A DNA stretch of 64,000 nucleotides. Source: Patescibacteria group bacterium. Lineage in GTDB: Bacteria > Patescibacteriota > JABMPQ01 > JAQVVF01. The notes under the pieces were generated by a model. The model ran no database searches and was not told the DNA's origin. It saw only the letters and a program-made list of their open reading frames with translations. The stretch is taken from positions 577,511-641,510 of the forward strand of contig JBAZSC010000001.1 of the NCBI GenBank assembly GCA_041662665.1. Direction: 5' to 3'. The position numbers and the translations under genes were made by a program. Below, one piece after another: positions 2,706 to 62,372 of this stretch (the stretch's first letter is position 1; each line of letters begins with the position of its first letter).

Positions 2706-4265
2706 ATGAAAAACAAAACAAAATATCTAATTTTCCTATCACTATTGCTCGCAATAGGTATTTTGTTTTATACTAGTATTTTTTATAACCAATATCCAAT
2801 TCTTTTAGGCGATGATGGAATTAGGCATATCAGCCATGCTCAGGAAATTATTAAAACAGGATATCCAAATCAAGTTCTTGATCCTCCAGTATTCCATATT
2901 TTGATTGCTACAATTTCCTTAATAACAGGCCAATCTAGTGCTACAGTCCTTACGTTTGGAGTTCCATTTATATTAATGCTTGTCCTCGCAGCAATTTTCA
3001 TGTTTGCAAAGAAAGCTTTTGGAATAAATATCGCTATTTTAGCATGTTTTTTAGTTGCTTTTGTTTCAAGACAGCCGATTCAAACATTGGAAGATGGTTC
3101 ATTACCAAGTGTCTTTACTAGCGGTTTCTTATTTATTTTTGGATTATATTTCTTATATCAAGCGCTAAAAAGTAACTACGATGTTCGGTATATCTCGTTA
3201 TCTTCCATTTTCTTTATATGTCTAATCTTGACCCATCATCTTACATTTACATATTTTTGTATATTTTTAGGCTTAATGTTTATCTATCTACTAGTAAATT
3301 CACTAATTAAAAAAGACTTCAGAGCATTATTGATCTTTTTAATCATATGTGCAGCAATCGCTATCCTTGGTTTTTTGTTTGCCTTGCCATATTATGGATA
3401 TGCAATAATCAATAGCGTTTTTAAAAATATATTTCCAGATATTGCAGTCGGAGGAACAAATGCAGCTCAAATAGTATTGGCAGAAACTGATGTTATGCCA
3501 TCATTCGCAAGGATTAGCGATCTACTGAGCAATAATTTATTGCTTTATTTAACAATTCTAGGAATTATTTTATGTATATTTTTTAAAGCTAAAAATAATA
3601 AAACAAATGACTTTTCTGCTCCAATACTTTTTTCCTGGCTATTGGCATTAATTATTGGCGCATCAATACCAATAACAGTAGAACATCTCCGCTATATGCG
3701 TGATATGGCCATACCGATTTGTATCTTATCAAGCATCGCTATAATTCTGAGCATCAGCATTATAAATAATATAAAATACAAACTGTATGTTTCATTTGCA
3801 ATTACACTTTTACTTATTATTCCAACAGCAAAAAGAGTTGACCACATAATTAGCTATAATACGATGCAAAGAGTTCAGCCTGTAGATACGCAAGCAATCA
3901 ATTGGATAAAAAACAATACTCTGAAAAACTCTAAAATCTTAATTACTCCTGGTTTTGGAACAAGAGGTTGGGGAGATTATATATCGTTATTAACAGATCG
4001 TGAAACAGTTATCATTCAAAACATTAAAGATAAAAAAGAATATTTAGCTTTTAACGATCCAGACAACGAATCATCAAAAAAGTATTTTCAAGAAAATAAC
4101 ATTAGCTATATTTATGCGGGCAAGGAACCAATTGGCTGGTGGCCTGGGTTAGAAAAATTTCCATGGCATAATAGCAATCTAACAAAAGCTAGTAATTTGG
4201 ATAAAAAAACCGAATTCAATAGTAAATTCGGCAATGTAGAGATATTCGAAGTTTTGAATAACTAA
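2706..4265 (+). CDS. GT-C polytopic membrane glycosyltransferase, candidate STT3/AglB/PglB-like oligosaccharyltransferase (GT66-like)
   Basis: About 12 TM segments, then a C-terminal soluble domain. The first loop has GDDGIRH, resembling the STT3 DPYFNYR motif. The C-terminal domain has RGWGDYISLLTDRETVIIQN, resembling WWDYGYxI...RTTLVDNN. It is a paralog of 22307..24409. Confidence 0.55.
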   Translation: MKNKTKYLIFLSLLLAIGILFYTSIFYNQYPILLGDDGIRHISHAQEIIKTGYPNQVLDPPVFHILIATISLITGQSSATVLTFGVPFILMLVLAAIFMFAKKAFGINIAILACFLVAFVSRQPIQTLEDGSLPSVFTSGFLFIFGLYFLYQALKSNYDVRYISLSSIFFICLILTHHLTFTYFCIFLGLMFIYLLVNSLIKKDFRALLIFLIICAAIAILGFLFALPYYGYAIINSVFKNIFPDIAVGGTNAAQIVLAETDVMPSFARISDLLSNNLLLYLTILGIILCIFFKAKNNKTNDFSAPILFSWLLALIIGASIPITVEHLRYMRDMAIPICILSSIAIILSISIINNIKYKLYVSFAITLLLIIPTAKRVDHIISYNTMQRVQPVDTQAINWIKNNTLKNSKILITPGFGTRGWGDYISLLTDRETVIIQNIKDKKEYLAFNDPDNESSKKYFQENNISYIYAGKEPIGWWPGLEKFPWHNSNLTKASNLDKKTEFNSKFGNVEIFEVLNN

Positions 4266-12834: not shown

Positions 12835-15018
<2,184 letters not shown>

Positions 15019-15056
15019 GTAGTAAGTAGCAAGTAGTTCTTTCTACTTTCTACATT

Positions 15057-15491
15057 CTACTTTCTACTTAAACTTATATAATTCTTTACAACTATTATTG
15101 TTACCCCAATTAAAATAATTCCAAAAATTTCAATCATTACACTCAGCAGATTTATTTTTACACCAATCTTATTTACAAAAAATATCACTAACGGCACCAA
15201 AGCCAAAGATAAAGCAATAGATAAAATAATTCTTTCAACCCAATCAATACCGTCATTTTTTTCGTCAGAACTATTTATCAGCGTCGTATCAGCGTTAGTA
15301 TCAGCGTCAAATCCGCTTCTACGAAAAAAGACATAGCTCCACACAAAACCAGGAATAAATAAAACATAAATAATTCCAAATACCAATCTAAAAGAATTTG
15401 CAAAACCAAGCCAAATAGAAGATATTAAAGCAATGATTGACAAAATTGCTAGAAATATTAATATAAATTTAATGATTTGTTTTGGATCCAT
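15057..15491 (-). CDS. small 4-TM membrane protein, a stand-alone paralog of the N-terminal module of 22307..24409
   Basis: Shares LFIPGFVWSYVFFRRSGFDADTNADTT and VERIILSIALS...KIGVKINLLS with the large protein. The NADTNAD loop is encoded by an ATCAGCGT repeat element. Confidence 0.6.
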   Translation of the reverse strand: MDPKQIIKFILIFLAILSIIALISSIWLGFANSFRLVFGIIYVLFIPGFVWSYVFFRRSGFDADTNADTTLINSSDEKNDGIDWVERIILSIALSLALVPLVIFFVNKIGVKINLLSVMIEIFGIILIGVTIIVVKNYISLSRK

Positions 15492-15561
15492 GTATTTAGA
15501 TTATCTTCTTTATTTTAACCTAAAAATAAAAAAAATCAAGGAATTATCTACAGTTTGATAC

Positions 15562-15590
15562 TTGCAAATAATTATACTACAAGCTACAAT
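15562..15590 (+). promoter_or_regulatory. putative sigma70 promoter of cysD (TTGCAA-N17-TACAAT)
   Basis: The hexamers and spacing were read directly. It lies about 50 bp upstream of the cysD ATG. Confidence 0.35.
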
Positions 15591-15641
15591 TAGAGTGTTG
15601 AAATTATATTTTATTTTTTAGAAACTTAAATTATTAAAAAT

Positions 15642-16445
15642 ATGACACATTTAGACAATCTAGAAGCAAAAAGTATTTACATTATTAGAGAAGCTTACAA
15701 GCAATATCATGACATTGCTCAACTTTGGTCAATTGGTAAAGATTCAACAACATTATTATGGCTTTGTCGAAAAGCATTTTATGGTCACTTACCATTTCCA
15801 GTTATGCATATTGATACTAGCTTTAAATTTAAAGAAATCTATCAATTCCGCGATGAATATACAAAAAAATGGAATTTAAAATTGATTGTTCATAGGAATG
15901 AAGAAGCCTTAAAAGCTGGAATGAATCCAAAGACAAAAGACAAACTTGAATGTTGTGGTCAATTAAAAACAGAAGCTCTAAAACAAGGAATTGCTCAATA
16001 CAAATTCAAAGCTTTATTATTAGGCATCAGACGCGATGAACATGGCATCAGAGCAAAAGAAAGAGTTTTTTCGCCACGAAATCAACAATTTCAATGGAAC
16101 TACAAAGATCAGCCAGCAGAATTATGGGATCAATATAAATCAAAACAAGCATCTGAACAACACATTCGCGTACATCCGCTTTTAGATTGGACAGAAAAAG
16201 ATATTTGGGCATATGTAGAAAGAGAAAATATTCCAATCGTTGATTTATATTTTGCAAAAAATGGCAAAAGATTCAGATCAATTGGCTGTGAAACATGTTG
16301 TGGTCCTGTTGATTCTAATGCATGCAATGTTCATCAAGTTGTTGAAGAATTAGAAACAACAAAGGTTGCTGAAAGATCAGGCAGAGCACAAGATAAAGAA
16401 AGTGTTTATGTGATGAATAAATTGAGAGCACTTGGTTATATGTAG
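15642..16445 (+). CDS. cysD: sulfate adenylyltransferase subunit 2
   Basis: Carries the PAPS-reductase-like motif SIGKDSTTLLWLCRKAF and is colinear with E. coli CysD. Confidence 0.9.
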   Translation: MTHLDNLEAKSIYIIREAYKQYHDIAQLWSIGKDSTTLLWLCRKAFYGHLPFPVMHIDTSFKFKEIYQFRDEYTKKWNLKLIVHRNEEALKAGMNPKTKDKLECCGQLKTEALKQGIAQYKFKALLLGIRRDEHGIRAKERVFSPRNQQFQWNYKDQPAELWDQYKSKQASEQHIRVHPLLDWTEKDIWAYVERENIPIVDLYFAKNGKRFRSIGCETCCGPVDSNACNVHQVVEELETTKVAERSGRAQDKESVYVMNKLRALGYM

Positions 16446-16455
16446 TCTTTATAAA

Positions 16456-16561
16456 GATACAAGAAACAAGATACAAACAATTTCCAATATCCAAATTAAA
16501 ATAACCAAACGCGACGAGTTTGAATATTGGTTATTGAAATTTGTTTGTATCTTGTATCTTG
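16456..16561 (+). other. long imperfect inverted repeat (arms of about 40 nt, loop GCGACGAG) between cysD and cysN
   Basis: caagaaacaagatacaaacaatttcc...ggttattgaaatttgtttgtatcttgtatcttg; the arms are near-perfect reverse complements. Confidence 0.6.
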
Positions 16562-16585
16562 ATTATTTATTTAATTAAAAAAAAT

Positions 16586-17827
16586 ATGTTAGAAAAGCAA
16601 TATTTGAAATTGGTCATAACTGGTCACGTTGATCATGGTAAATCAACTTTAATTGGTCGTTTGCTTTATGATACCGGTGCTGTTCCAGAAGACAAAGTTG
16701 CCGAAGTAAAGCAAGTTTGTGAATCTTTGGGCAGAGAAATGGAATTTGGTTTTATTACCGACCATTTTCAAGAAGAAAGAGAGCAAGGAATCACAATTGA
16801 TACAACTCAAATATTCTTCAAAACAGAAAAAAGAGAATATGTCATCATTGATGCTCCTGGTCACAAAGAATTTTTGAAAAACATGATTACTGGCGCTTCA
16901 CAAGCTGAAGCAGCTATTTTGATTGTTGATGCCAGCGAAGGCGTTCAAGAGCAAACAAAACGCCATGCTTATGTTTTAAGTATGCTTGGTATTCAACAAG
17001 TTATTGTTGCCGTAAATAAAATGGATTTAGTTGAATATAAATTAGATAGATTCAATGAAGTTGTCCAAGAATTAAAAACATTCTTATCTTCAATTAATTT
17101 AAAACCAACTTATATCATTCCAGTTTCAGCAAACAAGGGTGAAAACATTGCCAAAAGATCAACAAGCATGAAATGGTACAACGAAAAAACAATTTTGGAA
17201 GCTTTAGACAGCTTTACTCCGCTTAAAGATAAAGCAAATGAAACTTTACGTTTTCCAATTCAAGACGTTTACAAAGTAGGTGATAAGAGAGTTTTGGTTG
17301 GCAGGTTAGAATCAGGTTCAATCAAGCAAGGTGATAAAATAATCATGTTGCCATCAAATAATGAGTCAGAAGTCACATCCATTGAAGAATTTGGCAATCC
17401 AAATAAAAAAGAAGCTCATGCAGGCGAAAGCATCGGCATTACAATCAAAGATGATCCTTTTATTGAAAGAGGAGAAATAATTTGCAAAAAAGAAGAAGCA
17501 CCACAAGTTTCTGATACAATCAAAGCAAATGTTTTTTGGATGTCAAAACAAGGCTATAAAAAAGGCCAAAAAATAGTTTTCAGATCAGTTACTCAAGAAG
17601 TTCCAGGAACAATTTCAATAATTAATAAAAGAGTAAATTCATCAACATTAGAAACCTTAGAAGAAAATGCACCAGTAATTAATAATACTGAAGTTGGCGA
17701 AGTTACAATAAAATTAGAAAAACCAATTGTAATAGACGCTTTTTCCAAAGTCCAAGAAACAGGACGTTTCGTTCTTGCTGATCAATATGATACTGTGGCT
17801 GGAGGAATTATTCCAGATATTAAATAA
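16586..17827 (+). CDS. cysN: sulfate adenylyltransferase subunit 1 (GTPase); no APS-kinase domain
   Basis: Carries the G1 motif GHVDHGKSTL, DAPGH and NKMD. Start trimmed to the ATG at 16586. It is 414 aa, so not a CysNC fusion. Confidence 0.88.
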   Translation: MLEKQYLKLVITGHVDHGKSTLIGRLLYDTGAVPEDKVAEVKQVCESLGREMEFGFITDHFQEEREQGITIDTTQIFFKTEKREYVIIDAPGHKEFLKNMITGASQAEAAILIVDASEGVQEQTKRHAYVLSMLGIQQVIVAVNKMDLVEYKLDRFNEVVQELKTFLSSINLKPTYIIPVSANKGENIAKRSTSMKWYNEKTILEALDSFTPLKDKANETLRFPIQDVYKVGDKRVLVGRLESGSIKQGDKIIMLPSNNESEVTSIEEFGNPNKKEAHAGESIGITIKDDPFIERGEIICKKEEAPQVSDTIKANVFWMSKQGYKKGQKIVFRSVTQEVPGTISIINKRVNSSTLETLEENAPVINNTEVGEVTIKLEKPIVIDAFSKVQETGRFVLADQYDTVAGGIIPDIK

Positions 17828-17831
17828 TTTT

Positions 17832-17943
17832 ACGAGAATCTAGAATTTAGAATCTTGAATCTTGAATCGAATTTAGAATGTAGAATTCTAAATTCCAAAT
17901 TCTTCATTCATTCTAGAATCTAGATTCCAGATTCTAAATTCTT
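17832..17943 (+). repeat. tandem heptamer array (TWGAATY, about 10 units) followed by inverted copies (GATTCTA); a large palindromic structure
   Basis: gagaatc tagaatt tagaatc ttgaatc ttgaatc ... ttctagaatctagattccagattctaaattctt. Confidence 0.7.
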
Positions 17944-18657
17944 ATGTTTATAATTCTAGGTTACGATGGTTTGGAATACGATTTTGTCGAAAAAAACAAT
18001 TTTCCAAATCTCAAACAACAATCACATGGCATGACAGATTTGTCCGAATTTAAAGAACCAAGAACAATTGTTATTTGGTCATCTTTTATGGTTGGCAAAA
18101 ATTTAGAAGCAGACATCTTGAAGCAAGGCGCCAAAATGTGGGGTTCAAAAATCAAACCAGAAGATACTTTTTTAAAAAATTTCAAAAGCCATTACACAAT
18201 TGATGTTCCAGGATTTTCCTATGTCCTAAAACAACATGAAACAGAACGCGATTTGCTAAAAGGCTTTTTTGACAAAAAAAATGGAATTAAAGAATTTGAT
18301 AAATGCGCCTTTGACCATCACAAATTTGTTAAAGAACAATTTTTTAAAGAATTAAAGACTAATAAAGATTTAGTTTTTGGCTATTTTAATTTAGCTGATG
18401 TTGTTGGCCACTTGAGTTTCGGACAAGAATTAAAGATGAAATTAATCTATCAAGAATTAAATGATATTGCCAAAAAAGTCCAAACAGAACACCCAGATGC
18501 AACTATATTAATCATTTCTGATCATGGTATGCAAGCCATTGGCCAATTTGGCGATCATTCAAGACATGGTTTTTGGTCATTAAACAAGCAAATTAGTTTA
18601 AATAACCCAAAACCAACTGACTTCGCTAATTTGATATCTCAAAATTTTCAAATTTAA
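17944..18657 (+). CDS. short alkaline-phosphatase-superfamily (type I phosphodiesterase/nucleotide pyrophosphatase-like) protein, a truncated paralog of 31004..32575
   Basis: The N-terminus GYDGLEYDF is comparable to GLDGGTFRA. The SDHG metal-site motif is shared. It is only 237 aa versus 523. Confidence 0.5.
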   Translation: MFIILGYDGLEYDFVEKNNFPNLKQQSHGMTDLSEFKEPRTIVIWSSFMVGKNLEADILKQGAKMWGSKIKPEDTFLKNFKSHYTIDVPGFSYVLKQHETERDLLKGFFDKKNGIKEFDKCAFDHHKFVKEQFFKELKTNKDLVFGYFNLADVVGHLSFGQELKMKLIYQELNDIAKKVQTEHPDATILIISDHGMQAIGQFGDHSRHGFWSLNKQISLNNPKPTDFANLISQNFQI

Positions 18658-18672
18658 GACTTAAAATATTTC

Positions 18673-18701
18673 TTGTCAAAAGCAGGAACATAAGTTAAAA
18701 T
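18673..18701 (+). promoter_or_regulatory. putative sigma70 promoter (TTGTCA-N17-TAAAAT)
   Basis: Read directly upstream of 18726. Confidence 0.4.
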
Positions 18702-18725
18702 TAATACATAAAGAACAAACAAATC

Positions 18726-20495
18726 ATGAAAAAATTTGTTATTTTTTGTATAACGATCTTTACTTTATTCCAAACAAGTAATTTTGTTTTTGCTGAATCA
18801 ATTATTGTCACTGGTATAAAACAAAATGAGTTACAGCCAATCAGAACTTATAGTTTGAATACAGGTAATAAAATTAAAGAATTTTATCCATATGGAAAAT
18901 ATTTTTCTGGTGGCATTAATATTGCTGTAGGTGATCTAACTGGTGATAATAAAGATGAAATCGTTGTCTCACCAAAAAGCTCATGGCAACCAGAAATTAG
19001 AGTCTACACAAAAAGAGGAAAACTCCTTTCAAAGTTTTTAGCTTATGGAAAAAGTTTCAAAAACGGCATCGATATTGCAGTTGGCGATACAAACAATGAT
19101 GGCAAAAAAGAAATTATTACTGCTCCTGGCATACATAGCGATCCGATATTAAGCATTTTTAATTATAAAGGTAAAAAAATAATGCCAGATATTTTGGCAT
19201 TTCCAACAAATTTCAATAGAGGATTAAGTGTTGCTACAGGAGATATAAATTCTGACAGCAAAGACGAAATTATTGTTACAACTAATTCTGGCCAAGCGCC
19301 ATATGTAGAAATTTATAATGACCAAGCAAAAAAAATCGGACAATTTCTAATCTTTGACCAAGAATTCAGAGGCGGAGTAAATATTGCAGCAGGAGATATG
19401 AATAACGACAGTTACGATGAAATTGCTGCTTGCCAAGCATCACAAGGCACAGCATGCAAAATCTTTCGTTTTGGTTTCAAAACAAATGCTGTAAAAGAAT
19501 TGAGTGTTGTCAAATATCCAACGAATATTATTCCAAATTTCGGCAATGTTAATTCAGACAATAATAAAGAATTATTAATCTCTGATAGCAAAAAACCAAT
19601 TTTAAGTAGTTATAGCTTGGCTTTAAATTCAAGAACAACATTAAAATTAGCAAATGAAAACGTTCATTCAGAAATAGCTTTTATTCCTGATAATACTTTC
19701 AATTTTGTTGTCTATGGTGATACTCAACAAGTAGATCGTACAAATCATTTAAGAATAATCGAAGGAATTAACAACCAAAAATACGATTTTGCCTTTCATG
19801 TTGGCGATTTTACCCAAGATGATTCTGTTAATGAATGGGAAGTGTTTCAAAGACTGGAAAGCTCTATCATCAATAAAACACCCAAAAAAGGATTAAGCTC
19901 TGCTTTTTTTCCTGTCATTGGAAATCACGAATATGCATTAGATAATTATTTTACTCTTTTTAATACTTATCCAAAAAATCAATCATATTATTCATTTGAT
20001 TATAAAAATGCCCATTTCGTAGTACTAGATACCGAAACTGATTTTTCTATGGGCAGTACTCAATATGATTGGTTAAATTCTGATTTAGCCCTAACAAACA
20101 AAACCTGGAAAATTGTTTTATTGCATCGTCCTCCATACAATTCAAATTATAAATACAATTATTTTCATCCCAATGTAGATGTTAAAAATGATATTGTTCC
20201 AATATTAGAGCAATATAAAGTTAATATAGTCTTTGGCGGACATTCTCATATTTATGAACGGACTTATCCGATTTTTCAAGATCAAGCAAATTTTGTTAAT
20301 GGAATCACATATGTTATAACTGCTGTCGCTGATTCAAATCCAATTATGCCAAATTGGTGGACAGCAAAAAGCAAATCAGAATCATCATTTGTTAAAATTC
20401 AATTACGTGATAACATACTGAAAGGATACGCATATAACGAAATGCAAGGCTCGATAGACAAATTCGCAATCAATTCTAACTTATCAAATTTATAA
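18726..20495 (+). CDS. secreted protein with N-terminal FG-GAP/VCBS-like repeats and a C-terminal calcineurin-like metallophosphatase (purple acid phosphatase-like)
   Basis: Has a signal peptide and repeated GDxNxDxxDEI motifs (GDLTGDNKDEIVV, GDTNNDGKKEII, GDINSDSKDEII, GDMNNDSYDEIA). The metallophosphatase motifs are GDTQQ, GNHEY, LLHRPPY, GHSHIYER. Confidence 0.8.
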   Translation: MKKFVIFCITIFTLFQTSNFVFAESIIVTGIKQNELQPIRTYSLNTGNKIKEFYPYGKYFSGGINIAVGDLTGDNKDEIVVSPKSSWQPEIRVYTKRGKLLSKFLAYGKSFKNGIDIAVGDTNNDGKKEIITAPGIHSDPILSIFNYKGKKIMPDILAFPTNFNRGLSVATGDINSDSKDEIIVTTNSGQAPYVEIYNDQAKKIGQFLIFDQEFRGGVNIAAGDMNNDSYDEIAACQASQGTACKIFRFGFKTNAVKELSVVKYPTNIIPNFGNVNSDNNKELLISDSKKPILSSYSLALNSRTTLKLANENVHSEIAFIPDNTFNFVVYGDTQQVDRTNHLRIIEGINNQKYDFAFHVGDFTQDDSVNEWEVFQRLESSIINKTPKKGLSSAFFPVIGNHEYALDNYFTLFNTYPKNQSYYSFDYKNAHFVVLDTETDFSMGSTQYDWLNSDLALTNKTWKIVLLHRPPYNSNYKYNYFHPNVDVKNDIVPILEQYKVNIVFGGHSHIYERTYPIFQDQANFVNGITYVITAVADSNPIMPNWWTAKSKSESSFVKIQLRDNILKGYAYNEMQGSIDKFAINSNLSNL

Positions 20496-20542
20496 TAATT
20501 CAGTTTTTCTTCGCAACTTATTAAACTTATATTTATTAAGTA

Positions 20543-20707
20543 ATGCCAAGAAAGCTAAACAAAATAATGTGTGATTGTACAAAATGCGATTGCGGATGCA
20601 ATTGCGAACATGATGAAGAAGAAAAAAAAGATGATCAAAAAGAATATACGAATGATGAAGAAAAAATGATCAAGGACAAATTAAAAGGTCTAGGTTATCT
20701 TGACTAA
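20543..20707 (+). CDS. small Cys-rich protein (54 aa) missing from the ORF track: MPRKLNKIMCDCTKCDCGCNCEHDEEEKKDDQKEYTNDEEKMIKDKLKGLGYLD
   Basis: An ATG at 20543 reaches TAA at 20705-20707. It has a CxCxxCxCxCxC cluster and an acidic/Lys tail, and is metallothionein-like. Confidence 0.4.
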   Translation: MPRKLNKIMCDCTKCDCGCNCEHDEEEKKDDQKEYTNDEEKMIKDKLKGLGYLD

Positions 20708-20714
20708 AAAATCT

Positions 20715-20790
20715 CAAATTTACACAAATTTAGCACGAATTACACAAATATTAGTTCGTGAAATTTGTGTTTAATTTGTGTAAATTAGCG
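20715..20790 (+). other. complex palindrome (aatttacacaaat ... atttgtgtaaatt) downstream of the small Cys-rich ORF and upstream of the flippase
   Basis: Inverted repeats of TTACACAAAT were read directly. It may be a terminator or an operator. Confidence 0.5.
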
Positions 20791-20795
20791 ATTCT

Positions 20796-22241
20796 ATGTT
20801 TAAAAGGTTATTATTTGATACAATGTTTGCCTTATCAGCAAATACAATCTTCAAAGTATTGAATGCAATCATTGTTATCGTTCTAGCAAACTATTTAGGA
20901 CCTGATAAATACGGCATCTATTCAACAGCCATTGCTTTCATTGGTATTTTTTTAGTCTTCAGCGATATGGGCTTAAGAATGCTTTTAATTCAAGAAGGCT
21001 CTAAAGATATCAAAAAAGCGCCAGTTTATTTTGGCAATGCAATAATATTTCAGTCAATTCTAACTGTTTTAGTCATTCCGATTCTATTTATTACTTCAAA
21101 ATTATTTGGCTATTCACACATTACAGTTATCTTGATATTGGTTTTAGGTCCAGCTTTATTTCTGATTGAACAATCTCGAGTCAGTTGGGCAGTTTTAAGA
21201 TTAAAAAATATTAATAATAGCGTTTCAATTTCTGAAGTCTTGCAAGGTTTTGCATCATTAGGCGCAATATTTTTTATCACAAAACTTTCCGATACTCCTA
21301 CAAATCAAACTCTATTTTATATTGCCATTTCACAACTTGTTATAAATTTTGTTTATTTTATAGTTTTATTTATCTATGCCTCAAAAGCTGTTTTTAAGCC
21401 AGAATTTGCTTTAAAAGCTTTAAAAGGCATGCTGAAAAAATCATATATTTTTGCCTTGTCAGAATTATTTTTCACTGTTTATTTTCAAGTCGATCAAATC
21501 GTAATATCAATCATAAAAAATGCTCAAGACGTTGGTTTTTATTCCGCACCATTTAAAGTCATTATTTTCTTTCTTTTTATTCCAAGAATTTTAGTTAGAA
21601 TTTCACGTCCATTCATGTACAAACTGTTTTATGGAGGAATGGACAAATACAAAAGAATAAATATTTTTTTTCATCGATATTATTCAGCAATTGGCATTCC
21701 ATTAGGCATTCTAACTATTTTGCTAGCTCAACCAATCATTTTGTTTTTGTTTAAAGAAAAATATTCAGCTTCAATTCCTGTTTTAAAAGTTTTTGGCTGG
21801 TTTATAATGTTTTATTTTATCTCAGTTGCATCTTCACAATCTTTAACAACATTATTAAAACAAAAAACATTAACCAAAATTCAAGCGACAACAGTTATAT
21901 TAAATCTTATTTTAGATATTATTTTTGTTTGTTATTTTGGCTTCGTCGGTGCTGCTTATGCCACATTAATTGTCCAAATCATCGCATCATGTCTATTCAT
22001 TTATTTTGATGCAAAATATATGCAAGAAAAAATAATAAACATAATAAAACCGCTATTTTCAATAATAGCGGCGGGAATCGGTATGGCAATTTTTACCTAT
22101 TTATTACGTAATACAGTAGAATTTATACTCTTAGGAATAATGTCTTGTTTCGTTTATATTTTATTTCTTTATATTTTCAGATTTTTCAACGAATATGATA
22201 TTAAATTATATCAACAAATAATTAAGAAAAAACATAATTAA
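20796..22241 (+). CDS. Wzx/MOP-superfamily flippase (polysaccharide biosynthesis protein)
   Basis: A 481 aa polytopic membrane protein with a Wzx-like N-terminus. Confidence 0.7.
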   Translation: MFKRLLFDTMFALSANTIFKVLNAIIVIVLANYLGPDKYGIYSTAIAFIGIFLVFSDMGLRMLLIQEGSKDIKKAPVYFGNAIIFQSILTVLVIPILFITSKLFGYSHITVILILVLGPALFLIEQSRVSWAVLRLKNINNSVSISEVLQGFASLGAIFFITKLSDTPTNQTLFYIAISQLVINFVYFIVLFIYASKAVFKPEFALKALKGMLKKSYIFALSELFFTVYFQVDQIVISIIKNAQDVGFYSAPFKVIIFFLFIPRILVRISRPFMYKLFYGGMDKYKRINIFFHRYYSAIGIPLGILTILLAQPIILFLFKEKYSASIPVLKVFGWFIMFYFISVASSQSLTTLLKQKTLTKIQATTVILNLILDIIFVCYFGFVGAAYATLIVQIIASCLFIYFDAKYMQEKIINIIKPLFSIIAAGIGMAIFTYLLRNTVEFILLGIMSCFVYILFLYIFRFFNEYDIKLYQQIIKKKHN

Positions 22242-22306
22242 TTTTGACAATATCTCGATATCATAATATCCGTAATATTAACCAATTTAAAATAACAAAC
22301 CTAAAA

Positions 22307-24409
22307 CTATAAATTATCTTTATTGATTTTGAATATTATAATTGATCCTAATTTGTCTGAGTCAAAAAACTCAGCTTTTTTTTCTAAAAAATCTGTATTT
22401 AATAATTTTTCCTGATATTTCCAGTCGATGTCAGCTTTTGTACTAAAAGATCCAAGTACTTTTTTGCCAGCATAGACAAATTCAATATTATTTTTTTTAT
22501 AAAATGATCTCGATAATTCAGAATTTGGATCAAAGATCCAAGGACATTCGCCTTTATAATCATTGCAATCGCTACCGTCGATTACAGCTCTGCCAGTCAA
22601 TAAATTAATATAGCTACCCCAACTTCTCATTGCTAATGTCTTTGGATAAGATAAAATAATAGCATTTTGGTCAGTATTATTTCTTATCCAAGATAAAGCT
22701 TTTGCATCAGAATCTTGCAATCTAACTTTTTGATTATATTCTGTTGAATCTTTAATGAAATTTAATGTACTAAATGACAATATTAATATTAAAACAATCT
22801 TGAGAGCTAAATAGCTTTTATTTCTCAAAAATAATCCAATTGTCAAGAAAAAATAAGCAATCATAACTATCAAAGGCAAAGCTAAATCCAAAGCAAATCT
22901 ATTAGGTAAAATAAAAAATGAAAAACGAGTCCCAATAAACAAAGCGATAGCCCAGGAAATTATAATAATTTTTTCAGCTTTCTGTAGAGACTTAAAAAAG
23001 AAAAAGGGGATTGATATCAAACCAAGGCTAAATATAAAAACACCTAAATGATTATCATACGCTTTCCAAGATACAGCTAATTCTGGTATTTCCGAAGTTA
23101 CGCTCACATCGTTAATTTGGTTATTTACAGACATTGCACTTTGGAATTGAGCAATTATACTATTTAGAAAAATTTGAGAATAATATTCATAAGTCAAAGG
23201 CAATATTAGGACAAACAAAGAAAATATAAGAATTAAGAAATTTTTAAAATAAATATTCTCAAAAATTTTTAAATGTTTTTTAAAAGAATCAAATCTCGAT
23301 AAAAATTTAAGAATAAGTAATAAAAATGCTATCAAAAACAAAGTCAAAATCATATATGTACTCGATAGTGAATGAGTCAAAAACACTCCACCAAAGAATA
23401 AAAAACATAATATTATTTTTTTATAATTAATTTCTTTGCTCAAAAATAGATCCTTCAGAAATGCCAAGCCAAACAAGAATAAGCACAATCCAGCAAAAAG
23501 ATTTAGATAAGTACCAGTTGAATAAGAATTACCAGGCTGTCTTGATATAAAAACTAGCAAAACCAAAGAAATAATTGCTATCAACTCATTTTTAAATAAT
23601 TTCCTCACCAAAAAATAAAAAGCAAGATAAGAAATAATAAAAATAAATGGCACGAAAAATATTGTTGTTGTTACAACGTCTTGACCAGTAAAAAACGTTT
23701 CTAATGCTAATAGAGTGTGAAATAATGGGGGATCTAAAGATCCTTCCCAAGCTTTTGTAAAACCTTGTTCAATAATTCCTTTTGCTTCAGTCATGTGTCT
23801 TGTTGGATCATCACCTGGAGGAACAATGTAGTTATGATGGAAAATTCCGTAATAAAAATGGAAAGCTAGCAAAATAATCAGCAAAACCAAAATTATCGCT
23901 CCGAGATTATTTTTAACAAATTGCCAAAAATTAACTTTTTTTGATGCTATTATCGCAGAACTAAAAAAATTCTTATTAAAACCGTTTCTCAAAGAATAGA
24001 TTGATTGAGAAACAATAAATTCTTTGACAAATAAAATTATCAAGCCAATCATAATCAACAACGATATTTCAATCGCAGAGCTTAACAATGTAATTTTCAC
24101 ACCAAGCTTACTTGATAGAAACACAATTAAAGGCGACATTACAAAGGATAATCCAAACGACAAAATTATTCTATCCGCCAATCTTATAGAACCATTTTTC
24201 GGCGTTCTATCAGCGTTAGTATCAGCGTTAAATCTGCCTCTAAGCAACAAAAAGCCCCAAACAAAACCTGGCAAAAATAAAGCAAACACACTTCCTAAAA
24301 CAAATCTTAAAGATTCAAGTGCTGTAAATTTAAAAGTCAAAACAAAAAAAGCAACCATAGCAGATGCAATAAAAAGAAAAACGCCAAAAATAACTTTTTT
24401 ATTACTCAT
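22307..24409 (-). CDS. GT-C membrane glycosyltransferase, candidate STT3/AglB-like OST paralog, with an extra N-terminal 4-TM module
   Basis: The N-terminal 140 aa are paralogous to 15057..15491. The core has GDDPTRH and LDPPLFH, like 2706..4265. The C-terminus has SWGSYINLLTGRAVIDG, which is WWDYG...TGR...D-like, and matches the C-terminal domain of 2706..4265. Confidence 0.55.
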   Translation of the reverse strand: MSNKKVIFGVFLFIASAMVAFFVLTFKFTALESLRFVLGSVFALFLPGFVWGFLLLRGRFNADTNADRTPKNGSIRLADRIILSFGLSFVMSPLIVFLSSKLGVKITLLSSAIEISLLIMIGLIILFVKEFIVSQSIYSLRNGFNKNFFSSAIIASKKVNFWQFVKNNLGAIILVLLIILLAFHFYYGIFHHNYIVPPGDDPTRHMTEAKGIIEQGFTKAWEGSLDPPLFHTLLALETFFTGQDVVTTTIFFVPFIFIISYLAFYFLVRKLFKNELIAIISLVLLVFISRQPGNSYSTGTYLNLFAGLCLFLFGLAFLKDLFLSKEINYKKIILCFLFFGGVFLTHSLSSTYMILTLFLIAFLLLILKFLSRFDSFKKHLKIFENIYFKNFLILIFSLFVLILPLTYEYYSQIFLNSIIAQFQSAMSVNNQINDVSVTSEIPELAVSWKAYDNHLGVFIFSLGLISIPFFFFKSLQKAEKIIIISWAIALFIGTRFSFFILPNRFALDLALPLIVMIAYFFLTIGLFLRNKSYLALKIVLILILSFSTLNFIKDSTEYNQKVRLQDSDAKALSWIRNNTDQNAIILSYPKTLAMRSWGSYINLLTGRAVIDGSDCNDYKGECPWIFDPNSELSRSFYKKNNIEFVYAGKKVLGSFSTKADIDWKYQEKLLNTDFLEKKAEFFDSDKLGSIIIFKINKDNL

Positions 24410-24411: not shown

Positions 24412-24615
24412 TTATTTTTTTATTTCGAAAGAATCATCTGATACAAAAGCTAAGATAATTCCGAAAGCTAAGCCTAAAATCAAAACAATTTGACTGTTTA
24501 AATATCTATCATTAATCACATAATCTGTCCAAGAGTTTAAAACAGTTAGCAGAATAAACAATATCATACTTAATAAAAATCCATATTTACAAATTGTAGC
24601 TAAATATTTTTTCAT
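24412..24615 (-). CDS. small 2-TM membrane protein (67 aa)
   Basis: The ORF abuts the start of the GT-C gene. It is hydrophobic. Confidence 0.35.
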   Translation of the reverse strand: MKKYLATICKYGFLLSMILFILLTVLNSWTDYVINDRYLNSQIVLILGLAFGIILAFVSDDSFEIKK

Positions 24616-24617: not shown

Positions 24618-24660
24618 TTTTGAATTTATCAGCGTTAAATCAGCGTTAGAAATCAGCGTC
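24618..24660 (+). repeat. 4 x ATCAGCGT element (periods 11-13-11)
   Basis: atcagcgttaa atcagcgttagaa atcagcgtcga atcagcgc. Confidence 0.85.
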
Positions 24661-25237
24661 GAATCAGCGCTTGCTTCAATCTTGCATAAAAATTCTGCAT
24701 TTCATTTTTACTATAATTTTTCTTTAAGTTTAAGTCAATTTCAGTCAGTGTTAACAAATTTTGATCTGTTACACCAGCTGCAGAAATCGCAAAAGTCAGC
24801 TTATTATTTTTAATATAATAATTACTCAACAAAAATTCTCTCAAATTAAAATTAGCACATGCTTTTTTCCATTGTGAATCGATATCTGTAACTTTTGTAT
24901 CAACAAATTCATATTTATCAAATGCTTTTTCAGCACCTAATCTTATTGAACTTGGCTGTCCACTATATTTTACGCATAAATTTGCATCATTAAAATTGGG
25001 TGGAATTCTAACTGAAAAATAAATTAATTCTGCCTTAACTTTTTGCGAATAATCACTGCCAACATGTTCAACGGGCAATAGTCTATACCAAGGATACGGA
25101 TTAGAAAAACGCAACGAATCATCAGGATTAAAATTATAAACAATTGTCATATTCTTATCAAACACAAAAAACATTGATAAAACATAGATTATCACTGCGA
25201 CAAACAGAATCCAAATTATTATCTTCAAAATTTTCAT
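24653..25237 (-). CDS. membrane-anchored hypothetical protein (N-terminal TM plus an extracytoplasmic domain)
   Basis: An ORF bracketed by two ATCAGCGT elements. The C-terminal ALIRR is encoded by the element. Confidence 0.5.
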   Translation of the reverse strand: MKILKIIIWILFVAVIIYVLSMFFVFDKNMTIVYNFNPDDSLRFSNPYPWYRLLPVEHVGSDYSQKVKAELIYFSVRIPPNFNDANLCVKYSGQPSSIRLGAEKAFDKYEFVDTKVTDIDSQWKKACANFNLREFLLSNYYIKNNKLTFAISAAGVTDQNLLTLTEIDLNLKKNYSKNEMQNFYARLKQALIRR

Positions 25238-25254: not shown

Positions 25255-25297
25255 GTCAGCGTCATATCTGCGTTAGAAATCAGCGTCGAATCAGCGA
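25255..25297 (+). repeat. 4 x ATCAGCGT element (periods 11-13-11)
   Basis: gtcagcgtcat atctgcgttagaa atcagcgtcga atcagcga; nearly identical to 24618..24660. Confidence 0.85.
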
Positions 25298-25299
25298 TT

Positions 25300-27435
25300 T
25301 TAGAAGTTTGCTTCCAAAGAATCTTCTAAATAATTTCTAAAATCTTCGATAGCATCAACATCATAAACTCGTTCAGATAAATATAAATTATTTTTATCTT
25401 TTGCTTTATATAAACTCAATGATAGAAAATTATCAACAGAAGATAAAGCTGGCACATTATACATTTTATCAGCAACTTTTTTATCTTTTGTATCGCTATT
25501 TTTAAAATATTTTATAGATAGCGTACTAGAACTTAATGTTTTATAGTTCAAATAATTTTTCTTTAATAATTCCAAATTATCAACTCTATACGGATAAACA
25601 ATTAGTTCATCTTTTGCCACAAGAAGATAAACATGATCATAATCCATTACTATTTTATTTAAAGTTTCAAATGATTTTTCATCCAAAAAAGTTTTTAATT
25701 TGATAATAACGTCATCATTATCTAAATCATTTTCAAATTTATTTGCTTCAACTAAAAATTCTTTTTTAGAAAATAATTCTCTTCGAGGAACTGCATTAAC
25801 ATTATATAAATAATGTAAAACGTAAGACCATTTTTGCCAAGCCCATCCAGGATTCATTACGACTAAATCGTCAGTTTTAAAATTTTGGCTAATTTTTTGC
25901 AACTCCTTATCCATTCCATAATTTTCTCTATAGAAAACAATTGGCAAAGATATCAAAAAATTTCCAACAATTAAAACTATGATTGCTTTCTTAACAAAGC
26001 TTGTTAAATTTGAATTTAAATTGCTTAATCTAAACCATACAAAAGAAACAAGAATAAAGATGAAAGGCAAGAATATCGGATAAAATCTCCTCATAAACCA
26101 AGGCTGATCAATTGCAATTTGTGCTCGAAATAAAAATAATAATGAAGGCAGACATAATATAACTAAAATAAATTCTTCTTTTTTAAAGACTTTTTTGTAA
26201 AGTCCAATCAAGACGATAACAAAATAAAACAAAATTAAGTAAAAACCTAATGCTTTAAAATTGAATTGTATTTGATAAAATGACCAAGCCAGATTTGAAC
26301 CTTTTAAAAATAAAACAATTTCGTATAAACAAGCACCTAAAATGATTATACTGAAAATAATTCTTTGACCATTATTCATTAAATAATCAATTGTCTTTTT
26401 GCTAAAACCAAAAGCATATTTTCGAAGAAGATAATATACGATTAAGCATAATGCCAAAATCAAAAGCAAAACTAAAAAGACTTTAGAAAACAATTTCCAT
26501 GGATCGTAAAATTGTTTATAAAAATAAGCTAAGCCATTATATTTCTGCAGATACGCACCAAAAAATACTAAAGAAGCAACAGTTATGCCTGCACAAATAA
26601 GAGAATTCCATCCTAATTCGATTTTTTCGCCAAAATAACTAACTCTTAATTTCTTAATAGCCAAAATAATTAATAAAATTGCGATTGCAACAGCAAAATA
26701 CAGTAATGCCTCAGCACGAATAAAGATACAGAATAATAATGAATATAAACCAAAAAACAAACTAGATATTTTTTTGTTCTTCAAGCCTTCCATAAATAAT
26801 AAAATTCCAAGCCAGAAAAAAACCATAAACAAATTTTCTGAATTCAATCTCTTCGTAAACCAGAAAGTAGTATAAAAAGTACTAAGCAACAACAACGAAA
26901 ATAAAGCAGCCTTTCTGTTTGCCAAATCAGAAACAAGACAATAAATCAAACTTAAAAACAAAATCATTAATAAGCAATTCGCCCAAAGCATTGCATTTAT
27001 TCCGCCAAAAAGAAAATAAACAGCTAAATAAACAATATAGCCAGGCAAAAATTGAGATGTAAAAACATTTCCTTCTAAATTTCTAAAACCTGAATAAGCA
27101 TGAGTCAACTGATCATTAAAAGATAATGAACTAGTTTTAGTCAGCATAATCGCTGCTGACATATAACTCGCATCATCTCTGCCAGAAGGAATTCCATGAT
27201 GAAAAAAAGAAACAATTAAAGAAAAAACAATGATTGCTCCAAAAACAATCAGATCTTTTCTCTCAAGCTTAATTTTTTGTTTTCTCAGAAAAATCCAAGC
27301 TAGAAAACCTATACCAAATAAAATTAAAGATATAATTACGCTAATTTTATTAAACCAGCCAAAAACAGCCAAACCTAGCAAAAAAGTTAGACAAAAAGCA
27401 AAAAATAAAGTAAAATATTTTAAACAGTTAAACAT
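25300..27435 (-). CDS. GT-C family membrane glycosyltransferase (PMT/ArnT-like, PMT_2-type)
   Basis: A 711 aa polytopic protein. The first loop has HGIPSGRDDASY, a DD/DE motif typical of the ArnT/PMT fold. Confidence 0.6.
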   Translation of the reverse strand: MFNCLKYFTLFFAFCLTFLLGLAVFGWFNKISVIISLILFGIGFLAWIFLRKQKIKLERKDLIVFGAIIVFSLIVSFFHHGIPSGRDDASYMSAAIMLTKTSSLSFNDQLTHAYSGFRNLEGNVFTSQFLPGYIVYLAVYFLFGGINAMLWANCLLMILFLSLIYCLVSDLANRKAALFSLLLLSTFYTTFWFTKRLNSENLFMVFFWLGILLFMEGLKNKKISSLFFGLYSLLFCIFIRAEALLYFAVAIAILLIILAIKKLRVSYFGEKIELGWNSLICAGITVASLVFFGAYLQKYNGLAYFYKQFYDPWKLFSKVFLVLLLILALCLIVYYLLRKYAFGFSKKTIDYLMNNGQRIIFSIIILGACLYEIVLFLKGSNLAWSFYQIQFNFKALGFYLILFYFVIVLIGLYKKVFKKEEFILVILCLPSLLFLFRAQIAIDQPWFMRRFYPIFLPFIFILVSFVWFRLSNLNSNLTSFVKKAIIVLIVGNFLISLPIVFYRENYGMDKELQKISQNFKTDDLVVMNPGWAWQKWSYVLHYLYNVNAVPRRELFSKKEFLVEANKFENDLDNDDVIIKLKTFLDEKSFETLNKIVMDYDHVYLLVAKDELIVYPYRVDNLELLKKNYLNYKTLSSSTLSIKYFKNSDTKDKKVADKMYNVPALSSVDNFLSLSLYKAKDKNNLYLSERVYDVDAIEDFRNYLEDSLEANF

Positions 27436-27446: not shown

Positions 27447-27489
27447 TTCAGCGCAATATCAGCGTTAGCAATCAGCGTCAAATCAGCTT
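27447..27489 (+). repeat. 4 x ATCAGCGT element in a divergent promoter region (periods 11-13-11, terminal atcagcttctaca)
   Basis: ttcagcgcaat atcagcgttagca atcagcgtcaa atcagcttctaca. Confidence 0.85.
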
Positions 27490-27512
27490 CTACAAAAGAT
27501 TATAACATAAAA

Positions 27513-29600: not shown

Positions 29601-29639
29601 TTCTGCTTTTTCTGCGTTAGCTTCTGCGTTCTTCTGCGT
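29601..29639 (+). repeat. 4 x TTCTGCGT element (periods 9-12-10)
   Basis: ttctgcttt ttctgcgttagc ttctgcgttc ttctgcgtc. Confidence 0.85.
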
Positions 29640-33823: not shown

Positions 33824-33866
33824 ATCAGCATCGTATCAGCGTTCGAAATCAGCGTAGAATCTGCTT
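33824..33866 (+). repeat. 4 x ATCAGCGT element (periods 11-13-11)
   Basis: atcagcatcgt atcagcgttcgaa atcagcgtaga atctgcttctat. Confidence 0.85.
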
Positions 33867-34811
33867 CTATTTCCGAAATTCCATCCTTTTTATTTTATAC
33901 AATATTTCCTCCAATAATTTTCTATTCCATCCAATTGCAGATCCTAACAGCCCAATCACTAACACTTGAAAACCAATCATCATCAAAGCACCAGCCAAAA
34001 TCAAAGATTGAATATGGCCAGTTCCATTGCCAATAAGATAATAATATAAAAACCTAATAACAAATAATAAGCCAGCACCAAATAGAATAGAGCCCATTAT
34101 ACTCATTACTCGCAATGGTTTATAAATCGTAAAAGTTCTTGTTATAACCATCAAAGATTTTACAATGTGAGACGGAATGCTTTTGATCAATCTTGATTTT
34201 CTATTCACTTTCCTTGCACGAATTGGAACTTCAGCAATCAACATATCATGATCAAGAGCTTGAATTACTGATTCATGAGTATAAGTATGTTTTGATAAAA
34301 TATTTATTTTCATTGCCGCTTCTTTTGTATAAGCTCGAAATCCAGAAGAAACATCATATTTTCTTGGCAAATCAACAACTTTATATACAATATAATTTCC
34401 AAACATGTTTCCATATTTATTGAATTTCGGCATAAAATCCAAATCTCGCACACATCTATTTGCAATCACAATGTCAGCCTTATTTTTCAAAATTGGAGCA
34501 ATCAAATCAGGAATTCTTGTCTGATCATAGTGATTATCAGCATCAGTATTTACAATAATATCAGCCCCAAACCATAATGCAGCAGTTACCGCATCTTTGA
34601 AAGTAATTGCCAATCCTTTATTTTTTTTATGTGAAATAACATAATCAGCGCCAGCTTCTTTTGCGATGCTTGCTGTATTATCAATTGACCCATCATCCAA
34701 AACTAGCACTTCTACTTTTTTAATACCAAAAATCTGCCTAGGAATTTCTCTAATCACTTCAGCAATATTCGCTTCTTCGTTAAATGCCGGTATTGTAATA
34801 ATTAATTTCAT
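33867..34811 (-). CDS. GT2 polyprenyl-phosphate sugar synthase (Dpm1/GtrB-like) with a C-terminal TM anchor
   Basis: Carries ITIPAFNEEANI...VLVLDDGSIDNT and two C-terminal TM helices. Confidence 0.75.
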   Translation of the reverse strand: MKLIITIPAFNEEANIAEVIREIPRQIFGIKKVEVLVLDDGSIDNTASIAKEAGADYVISHKKNKGLAITFKDAVTAALWFGADIIVNTDADNHYDQTRIPDLIAPILKNKADIVIANRCVRDLDFMPKFNKYGNMFGNYIVYKVVDLPRKYDVSSGFRAYTKEAAMKINILSKHTYTHESVIQALDHDMLIAEVPIRARKVNRKSRLIKSIPSHIVKSLMVITRTFTIYKPLRVMSIMGSILFGAGLLFVIRFLYYYLIGNGTGHIQSLILAGALMMIGFQVLVIGLLGSAIGWNRKLLEEILYKIKRMEFRK

Positions 34812-34816
34812 AGTAG

Positions 34817-35337: not shown

Positions 35338-35344
35338 ACATATT

Positions 35345-36351: not shown

Positions 36352-36352
36352 T

Positions 36353-36392
36353 TTCTGCGTTTTTCTGCGTTCACTTCTGCGTATTTCTGCGT
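36353..36392 (+). repeat. 4 x TTCTGCGT element (periods 10-12-10) overlapping the flippase 3' end
   Basis: ttctgcgt tt ttctgcgt tcac ttctgcgt at ttctgcgt; it encodes the flippase C-terminal NQRRNTQK. Confidence 0.85.
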
Positions 36393-37859: not shown

Positions 37860-37947
37860 TTCAGCTTTCGTATCAGCGTTAGAATCAGTGCGTAATCAAC
37901 TTCTACATATCAGCGTTCGAAATCAGCGCCGAATCAGCTTCTACATA
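37860..37947 (+). repeat. two consecutive ATCAGCGT-family elements (4 plus 3 units), each ending in atcaRcttctaca
   Basis: ttcagctttcgt atcagcgttaga atcagtgcgta atcaacttctaca t atcagcgttcgaa atcagcgccga atcagcttctaca. Confidence 0.85.
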
Positions 37948-62061: not shown

Positions 62062-62100
62062 TTCTGCATTTTCTGCGTCAGCTTCTGCGTCATTCTGCGC
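62062..62100 (+). repeat. 4 x TTCTGCGT element (periods 9-12-10) between convergent pyrG and rpmA
   Basis: ttctgcatt ttctgcgtcagc ttctgcgtca ttctgcgc. Confidence 0.85.
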
Positions 62101-62372
62101 TATTTCACGTTAACAAAACAAGTCTTTTTTAAACGTCCATTAAATTTCTTTGTCATTTTTGAATTGAATTCAACAACGCCTTCTTTCATAGCAAAAATTG
62201 TATCGTCACAACCTTGTTTAACATTTTTTCCAGGATAGTATTTTGTACCTCTTTGGCGTACAATAATATTGCCAGGTTTTACTACTTCACCAGCAAATTT
62301 CTTAACACCTAAACGTTGTGATTGTGAATCGCGACCAAGTTGGGTACTTCCGCCTGCTTTACGATGTGCCAT
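62100..62372 (-). CDS. rpmA: 50S ribosomal protein L27
   Basis: Carries [29 protein letters not shown]. Confidence 0.9.

Follow-up and report, generated by a model that had tools for sequence, protein, structure and literature searches.

We analyzed a 64-kb stretch of DNA (the window) from a metagenome-assembled genome (MAG) of the Patescibacteria, or candidate phyla radiation (CPR). Two paralogous membrane protein genes in this window, at 15057..15491 and 22307..24409 on the minus strand, each carry a copy of a short direct-repeat element in frame, and further copies of the element lie between genes. The element appears to be conserved as DNA, while the peptide that it encodes shifts in reading frame from one orthologue to another. 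A repeat conserved as DNA inside an open reading frame (ORF) is unusual but has precedents. [quoted passage not shown]

A direct-repeat array inside two genes

Alignment of the eight copies in the window, all on the minus strand, defines an element of ~46 nt that consists of a head followed by four ACGCTGAT octamers spaced 11, 12–13 and 11 nt from centre to centre. The head reads (G)TAGAAGCnGATT or CAAGCGCTGATT, that is (G/A)TAG-AAGC or TAR-CAAGCGC, with GTAG or ATAG in most window copies, and the octamers are (A/G)CGCTGAT, ACGCTGAT and (A/G)nGCTGA(T/A). A repeat array had been placed at two sites by an earlier reading made from the letters alone (the sequence-only reading). Tandem Repeats Finder (TRF) reports a period-12 TATCAGCGTTAG array at closely similar coordinates, 15276..15307 (2.8 copies) and 24208..24230 (1.9 copies), and the full element is longer, occupying 15277..15322 and 24198..24243. 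The string ACGCTGATA occurs 11 times in the window, compared with 0.12 expected, a count reached by none of 100 shuffles. Together with the six intergenic copies, this confirms that a dispersed DNA repeat encodes the loop, as that reading had proposed.

Two of the eight copies are coding. The copy at 15277..15322 (GTAGAAGCGGATTTGACGCTGATACTAACGCTGATACGACGCTGAT) specifies residues 57–72 (RRSGFDADTNADTTLI) of a 144-residue protein, and TAG or TGA codons close both other frames. The copy at 24198..24243 (TTAGAGGCAGATTTAACGCTGATACTAACGCTGATAGAACGCCGAA) specifies residues 56–71 (LRGRFNADTNADRTPK) of a 700-residue protein. The six non-coding copies are located 11–22 nt before start codons, and three of them begin at or overrun the upstream stop. 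At 25255..25299, the element starts directly after the TAA of a 711-residue PMT_2-like GT-C gene (25300..27435) and ends 18 nt before the next ATG. At 33824..33869, the leading TAG is itself the stop codon of a glycosyltransferase family 2 (GT2) gene (33867..34811), and the copy ends ~20 nt before the start of a family 4 (GT4) gene. The copy at 24628..24673 is entered by an upstream ORF (24653..25174/25237, ending …KQALIRR and a stop) and ends 12 nt before the ATG of a 67-residue ORF (24412..24615). The other three comprise a copy in a divergent intergenic region (27447..27493), 11 nt before the ATG of the 711-residue GT-C gene, and a tandem pair at 37909..37944 (three units) and 37860..37906 (four units; TRF period 38) upstream of a Wzx-like gene (36371..37837).

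To ask what is conserved, we compared four orthologous sites between the window and GCA_964574655.1, a related genome labelled Ca. Saccharibacteria that contributes loci L003 and L025: 24628..24673 with L003:563, 24198..24243 with L003:987, 15277..15322 with L003:10178 and 27447..27493 with L025:7261. Identity is 90% in the octamers compared with 43% in the spacers (Fisher p=1.6e-9), which argues that selection maintains the octamers and their spacing, and that the constraint acts on the nucleotides rather than on the loop peptide. The first of these pairs is nearly identical; in the last, the orthologous copy likewise lies upstream of the orthologue of the 711-residue gene, with its octamers conserved and its spacers not. 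In the flanking codons, identity at third positions is 0.53–0.63 among the orthologues of the window, L003 and L005, 0.44–0.46 against the more distant L011, and 0.40–0.50 between paralogues. The loop copy is found in both paralogues and in a fused homologue of 46% identity, and is therefore old.

The peptides tell a different story from the octamers. In the free protein the loop reads RRSGFDADTNADTTLI in the window, SSADSTLISNADNTLI in L003 and PNADSTLISNADKTL in L005; in the fused protein it reads RGRFNADTNADRTPK in the window, IADKTLISNADTTLK in L003 and TSADSSADTNADVDADRTL in L011. The middle spacer measures either 4 or 5 nt, so that ACGCTGAT gives xAD in one set of orthologues and TLI in another. 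The sequence-only reading had taken the repeat to contribute a conserved peptide; it is the DNA that is conserved instead. We therefore regard it as very improbable that the loop peptide itself is under selection, for example as an acidic repeat of Asp, Thr and Asn for binding cations or a partner, with the likeness in DNA left by ancestry or conversion. The two window loops are indeed alike as peptides (FDADTNADTT and FNADTNADRT), and a 4-nt ACTA spacer that both coding copies possess points to conversion between the paralogue loops, since among the 30 aligned copies it recurs only once, in the tandem intergenic copy 37860..37906. However, the differing peptides that orthologues make from the same octamers, through changes of frame, largely refute this explanation. 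In addition, the loop is hypervariable among homologues, with distant loops unrelated in sequence and variable in length, the loop of a sister genome is 16 residues shorter, and the same DNA is found dozens of times in non-coding positions.

The loop that carries the element connects helices 2 and 3 in both paralogues. In the AlphaFold2 (AF2) model of the 700-residue protein, residues 58–74 have a predicted local distance difference test score (pLDDT) below 50, and the encoded copy falls inside this segment, consistent with a disordered loop. To our knowledge, the acidic first loop faces outward in every GT-C enzyme. Counting helices back from this catalytic loop in the model places the linker (residues 142–168) inside, helix 4 running out-to-in and helix 3 in-to-out, and hence loop 57–76 inside. 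The distribution of positive charge agrees: averaged over 19 homologues, the number of lysines and arginines is 2.0 in the N-terminus, 4.7 in loop 2 and 3.8 in the C-terminus, versus 1.1 and 1.6 in loops 1 and 3. Based on the helix count and the positive-inside rule, the element-bearing loop is most likely cytoplasmic, and not external as first described.

Of the 30 aligned copies, 22 have just one frame free of stop codons, and each coding copy is read in an open frame. The idea that the element supplies back-up stop codons in all frames was rejected, as only two frames are closed.

Gene boundaries and the nature of the array

A pattern scan of 185,579 species genomes returned 16 exact matches in GCA_964574655.1, which thus holds at least 16 copies, and single matches in four other Patescibacteria MAGs; four further matches are likely due to chance. 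A metagenome scan yielded 47 loci with the element. Of 18 copies in GTDB Patescibacteria, at least 11 have the stop codon of a same-strand ORF within or beside the head, 5–14 nt ahead of the core; for at least eight of those 11, this stop coincides exactly with the TAG or TAA that forms the 5' edge of the element. In GCA_964574655.1 a TAG or TAA precedes the 5' edge of 11 of the 16 copies, and a stop codon is similarly found at the element in metagenome loci L035, L038, L047, L055, L070 and L081. Five copies, L028 (z=-3.0) and L026 (z=-2.2) among them, are directly followed by a strong hairpin with a U-run. The genes that flank copies in GCA_964574655.1 include lepA, a DEAD-box helicase, rplU, rpmA, recG, tpiA and phosphoglucomutase, as well as an M23 peptidase, GT2s and a Wzz-like protein. 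Since unrelated housekeeping genes are found at the element, it is a genome-wide gene-boundary repeat and not a glycan-specific signal. Among the copies surveyed, coding ones were found only in the two DUF1616 paralogues; one further match, L017, lies among overlapping ORFs.

These flanking genes bear on the possibility that the array is an operator for a DNA-binding factor, such as an OmpR/PhoB-type regulator of an envelope glycan regulon, with the loop copies acting as intragenic operators. Four direct repeats at 11–13 bp are the classical layout for PhoB/PhoP-box regulators, and the 11/12–13/11 spacing fits the direct repeats of response regulators. In the window, the six non-coding copies all stand 11–22 nt upstream of glycan-gene starts and are followed by TAAAT-like -10 sequences; the position of all window copies before glycan genes is what suggested a glycan-regulon operator. 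However, the placement expected of such an array, at the -35 region of co-regulated promoters, is not borne out: the flanking genes in GCA_964574655.1 are unrelated housekeeping genes; several copies lie between convergent genes, after a stop and before a terminator hairpin, with no promoter to control; and the strict association is with the upstream stop and not with the downstream start. The housekeeping flanks and the copies between convergent genes led us to reject a glycan-regulon operator, and we consider an operator of this general kind improbable.

A more serious alternative, although still rather unlikely in our view, is that the array is a host cis-signal in the transcript. A multimeric RNA-binding protein would read the four ACGCUGAU units, and the array in the 3' untranslated region (UTR) or between cistrons would set mRNA stability, processing or re-initiation; the element would not be mobile now, and the loop copy would be a working one. 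Approximately 25 of 26 non-coding copies share the orientation of the gene upstream and start at the stop codon of that gene. The array is unstructured, with solo window copies folding no better than shuffles (z -0.5 to +0.9), and a terminator hairpin often comes next. Conserved octamers with free spacers at orthologous sites, a copy at every junction of the operon from 27493 to 22307, and the loss of the whole set in a sister lineage (below) are all in keeping with such a signal. So is the scarcity of Shine-Dalgarno sites: they are absent before most window genes. Many window genes have a TATAAT-like box just before the ATG, and among all gene starts in the window a strong GAGGAGGA precedes only 34981, 50613 and 62473. 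On the other side, one copy in GCA_964574655.1 (L034) is antisense to both neighbours, the divergent-promoter copies at 27447..27493 and 37860..37944 have no upstream ORF, and the head-to-head and tail-to-tail palindromic composites of related lineages are typical of mobile or REP-like repeats. Rfam at gathering thresholds gave zero matches in the window, and a known RNA family and a structured RNA were both set aside, the former for want of an Rfam match and the latter on the folding result. A form of this idea that we hold somewhat more readily, but still tentatively, is that the array is a novel gene-boundary signal of Shine-Dalgarno-poor Patescibacteria, a single-stranded platform that starts from the stop codon and is read by a dedicated multimeric protein.

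Two further candidates were rejected. A Rho-utilisation site would fit the ~12-nt period, but the octamer is not C-rich and lacks YC dinucleotides. Pairing of GCUGAU with the 3' end of 16S rRNA in the manner of a Shine-Dalgarno sequence has one mismatch and the wrong distance to the starts (12–22 nt). A scan for consensus promoters and terminators showed no enrichment over shuffles.

The composites are found on other CPR groundwater-type contigs, where the array forms imperfect palindromes of ~110 nt, arranged head-to-head in L036, L040 and L049 and tail-to-tail in L047, L066, L071 and L080. In some of them (L040, L049) a nested GC-rich hairpin is inserted in one arm. The clade of the window has solo copies only.

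Empty sites are provided by a sister genome represented by three independent JGI assemblies (L008–L010). No arrays are present in the 12.9 kb of L008, and three of its sites are cleanly empty where the window is filled. In place of 25255..25299, the stop of the 711-residue gene is followed after 4 nt by ATG; in place of 24628..24673, the next two ORFs overlap by ATGA; and the loop of the split DUF1616 protein is exactly 16 codons shorter. The loop of the free protein in L008 is unrelated in sequence. By the identities of CysD, CysN, metallophosphatase and Glf, this lineage is the closest to the window, and the element-bearing GCA_964574655.1 is further off. Because L008 is thus nested among element-bearing genomes, the simplest reading of these comparisons is that its lineage lost the whole element set. 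No target-site duplication is visible at the three filled/empty junctions.

The array shares several features with REP sequences and bacterial interspersed mosaic elements (BIMEs) of enterobacteria, which are linked to REP-associated tyrosine transposases (RAYTs). The head of a REP starts with GTAG. Similar to REPs, the element is a multicopy extragenic repeat placed just after stops in 3' UTRs; it has a GTAG-type head, forms inverted pairs in related lineages and is uniformly oriented along a contig, with 13 of 13 copies on contig 1 of GCA_964574655.1 on one strand, L034 included. Unlike REPs, solo copies have no palindrome after the head, an 8-mer is iterated four times without a stem-loop, and a RAYT gene was not seen. 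With respect to MITEs and Rickettsia palindromic elements (RPEs), the solo copies lack terminal inverted repeats, whereas related metagenome copies are palindromic, and the element is multicopy with filled and empty sites, the 64-kb window having 8 copies and GCA_964574655.1 at least 16.

RPEs and intragenic MITEs (ERIC, BOX) are dispersed repeats that lie in frame within genes (PMC10969869), and the RPE family of Rickettsia is the nearest precedent for repeats inside ORFs. In both cases a short multicopy non-coding repeat is also found in ORFs, provides an open frame and adds a peptide at a site where the fold tolerates it, and the host has a small, reduced genome. RPEs differ in being ~150 bp long and palindromic and in entering many unrelated genes with one conserved peptide per family; the element described here is 46 nt long, is built of direct repeats without a hairpin, and is read in frames that differ between orthologues. 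A literature search on repeat elements of Saccharibacteria found nothing.

Considering the copies together, we favor the REP/MITE-like array introduced at the outset. The element would be a member of a repeat family of some Patescibacteria, whose normal site is the gene boundary, from a stop codon to the next start codon or to a terminator hairpin. Given that selection has preserved the octamers and the distances between them, and has left the spacers to vary, the octamers may be recognition sites for a putative sequence-specific protein, either a transcript-directed host factor or an enzyme that mobilizes the element; we infer both this binding and the manner in which the element spreads. The loop copy may persist because only the stop-free frame is used and the loop tolerates any sequence, and it may be kept through retention of a DNA or RNA signal. 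The loop peptide (…DADTNAD… or …ADSTLISNAD…) would be a by-product.

Several observations weigh against this interpretation. Conservation at orthologous sites (~60–90% protein identity) argues for a host function over a purely selfish element. Pfam scans identified no binding protein, transposase or RAYT-like gene in the window. Solo copies without inverted repeats or target duplications fall outside the definitions of MITE and REP. The orientation of L034 raises the possibility that copies follow replication rather than transcription. Finally, the case for an interaction between the DUF1616 module and the enzyme consists of gene fusion and neighbourhood.

The DUF1616 module and the GT-C enzyme

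The protein encoded at 15057..15491 (minus strand) is a stand-alone four-helix membrane protein of 144 residues, recorded as 'DUF1616 domain-containing protein [Patescibacteria group bacterium]'. Its sequence is recorded from NCBI, JGI, ENA and Logan assemblies and is therefore not an assembly artefact. The 700-residue protein (22307..24409, minus strand) begins with a DUF1616 module (residues 1–140, 23990..24409), and the two modules are paralogous. They are 40% identical over 139 residues (BLASTP, E=6e-23), and all four predicted helices are covered. Similarity is thus not confined to the repeat-encoded segment, the outcome that the sequence-only reading had named as its refutation, and the three shared stretches that the sequence-only reading had quoted as evidence of colinearity all fall inside the alignment. 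Its proposal of a module that exists both free and fused to the N-terminus of a GT-C protein is upheld by the two ORFs. Both pass the Pfam DUF1616 (PF07760) cut-off of 31.6 bits, with 62.9 bits for the 144-residue and 38 bits for the 700-residue protein. The profile is matched in part, over positions 3–115 and 5–171 of 307, which correspond to the N-terminal four-helix part, and all 19 aligned homologues match the family.

The remainder of the 700-residue protein (approximately residues 160–700, 22307..23932), which follows a cytoplasmic linker, has a GT-C fold in the AF2 model (pLDDT 74, predicted TM-score 0.77). A Foldseek search against the PDB returned 23 matches at E<=1e-3, all of them GT-C proteins, with TM-scores of 0.41–0.49. 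STT3 is the best match (E=8e-10, TM 0.47–0.49), followed by AglB, DPY19, AftA, PglB and ArnT; AftD and ALG12 are also among the matches, and those of the STT3/AglB/PglB/ArnT type span TM-scores of 0.45–0.49. The NCBI name of the protein is 'DUF6541 family protein', and DUF6541 (PF20176) scores 32.8 bits against a cut-off of 29, with residues 163–427 on profile positions 89–355 of 646. Residues G199, D200, D201, R204 and H205 are invariant in 12 homologues and directly follow the first GT-C helix. G199-D200-D201 lie in the first outer loop of the GT-C part, where conserved acidic residues characterize GT-C enzymes.

The sequence-only reading had called this enzyme OST-like, that is, like an oligosaccharyltransferase, and this description stands for the fold but fails for the sequence. 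The protein resembles STT3, AglB and PglB in its best structural matches, in the acidic motif of the first outer loop and in a C-terminal soluble domain after the last helix. It differs from them in a sequence identity of 12–15%, in the missing WWDYG motif (the nearest string is SWGSY, residues 596–600) and in four extra N-terminal helices foreign to STT3. The archaeal STT3 model TIGR04154 (archaeo_STT3) gives 20.3 bits against a cut-off of 450, and no STT3 Pfam match was found in the 700-residue protein. It is therefore not an OST by sequence and is OST-like at the level of fold only.

Fused, split and free forms are all found in nature. The 12 homologue clusters of the 700-residue protein include three fused proteins (700, 683 and 685 aa) and nine unfused ones. 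At the orthologous locus of the sister genome (L008:915-2907), a 122-residue DUF1616 gene and a 544-residue GT-C gene overlap by 11 nt, the ATG of the second gene preceding the TAA of the first by 8 nt, and nothing remains of the cytoplasmic linker. This survey bears out the suggestion of a fission or fusion pair. The free DUF1616 gene is the first gene of a minus-strand operon with glf, GDP-mannose dehydratase (GMD), an epimerase, Wzx, a methyltransferase and GT4s, and it heads a glf-GMD-Wzx-GT4 operon in the window, L003, L005 and L008. Its neighbours in L007, which is more distant, are a PMT_2 GT-C on one side and a Wzx on the other. A candidate in-trans partner of the free protein is the unfused GT-C paralogue of 519 residues at 2706..4265 on the plus strand, which is 31% identical to residues 185–695 of the fused protein (BLASTP, E=4e-54); this paralogue has no Pfam or NCBIfam match.

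Fusion and gene neighbourhood suggest that the DUF1616 module physically cooperates with the GT-C enzyme as an accessory subunit. DUF1616 would be a small four-helix membrane module with both termini in the cytoplasm, working in this Patescibacteria lineage with a DUF6541-type GT-C either fused to its N-terminus (700 aa) or as a separate chain (144 aa; the 122 + 544 aa pair). Sugars carried on polyprenyl phosphate are presumably transferred by the GT-C part to an acceptor outside the membrane. This arrangement is reminiscent of the three-component systems of periplasmic glycosylation, GtrA/GtrB/GtrC and GtcA/CsbB/YfhO, in which a small four-helix membrane protein, separable or fused, stands beside a GT-C and a polyprenyl-phosphate GT2. 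However, a scan of the 19 DUF1616 homologues at E up to 10 gave no likeness in sequence to GtrA (PF04138): of the 40 families hit, the 25 most-matched do not include GtrA, and the family table of the 144-residue protein lacks it as well. Kinship with GtrA was rejected on these grounds, and we know of no flippase activity for DUF1616.

A profile search over 1.8 billion representatives found 1795 relatives of DUF1616. The majority are stand-alone proteins of 95–160 aa; in some the module is C-terminal on other membrane proteins, and one of the top 150 is a GT-C fusion. A scan of domain content in the longer proteins was uninformative, and no solved structural relatives of the module were found. 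In the literature, the only paper found on DUF1616 lists a Haloferax DUF1616 protein as a glycoprotein in a proteomics table (PMC8241124), and a search for DUF6541 found no paper.

Immediately upstream of the 700-residue gene, at a distance of 2 nt, lies the 67-residue ORF at 24412..24615. It encodes two helices, has no family match and is conserved in L003, L008 and L011 (64–70 aa), often overlapping or coupled. It may encode an additional small partner for the GT-C enzyme.

The surrounding region and the meaning of the array

The window has a G+C content of ~29%, and by Pfam scans its first ~57 kb form one long glycan-synthesis region with many GT4 and GT2 proteins, four Wzx-like flippases, a Wzy, glf, GDP-mannose dehydratase, two PMT_2-like GT-C proteins and two of the DUF6541 type. 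No tRNA or tmRNA is found in the window. Within this region, 34981-36318 holds three small same-strand ORFs (118, 135 and 140 aa) with no Pfam match, each with a similar 'tatctatacttatt'-like sequence before it and a 'ttaggagttttttt' hairpin/T-run after it.

Intergenic spacers of this genome largely consist of short tandem repeats of several families. A second dispersed tandem array, with the unit ACGCAGAA and a period of 10–11, lies on the minus strand at 29601-29639, 36352-36393 and 62071-62099. Its unit resembles ACGCTGAT, and its three copies share the same absolute orientation; two of them begin at or overrun minus-strand stops (of the Wzx gene 36371..37837 and of 62100..62372), and the hairpin that comes next is shared with the convergent gene. 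At 15017-15069, GTAGAAA/GTAGTAA heptads overrun the TAG stop of the 144-residue gene and fill the spacer to the glf start. Approximately eight AGAATCT heptads at 17835-17942, in partly inverted halves, fill a 116-nt spacer after a cysN-like gene. Arrays of 9 nt of the ACTTTATAA type are present in three intergenic spacers in the same absolute orientation (30975-31012, 34812-34860 and 63305-63342), one directly upstream of a GT2 start and one directly after a stop codon. Finally, TGTTAAC/TGTTAAT and CAATTTAA arrays lie just upstream of starts at 57558-57593, 59775-59798 and 49271-49301; the downstream genes are an S41 peptidase, ribosomal protein L9 and a divergent pair.

For the protein family, the natural occurrence of the module as fused, split and free versions within a single gene neighbourhood ties DUF1616 to GT-C glycosyltransferases. 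This is a useful but modest gain in annotation, and it provides a testable partner for a family of ~1800 representative clusters. The 'NADTNAD' loop should not be taken by gene callers or motif hunters as a functional peptide motif.

The unusual part is a short direct-repeat element that appears to be kept as nucleotides within an ORF while its peptide frame shifts between orthologues. If the element is selfish, it would be a non-palindromic counterpart of the Rickettsia RPEs. If the octamers bind a host factor, they would be a new cis-acting signal for CPR bacteria, whose gene expression is poorly understood. Should the array be a boundary signal, it would set the fate of the transcript or the hand-over to the next cistron, and the DUF1616 genes would be dual-coding, with the signal kept in the ORF as the reading frame drifts. 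In that case, the sister lineage without copies could reveal the trans-acting factor by comparison of gene content.

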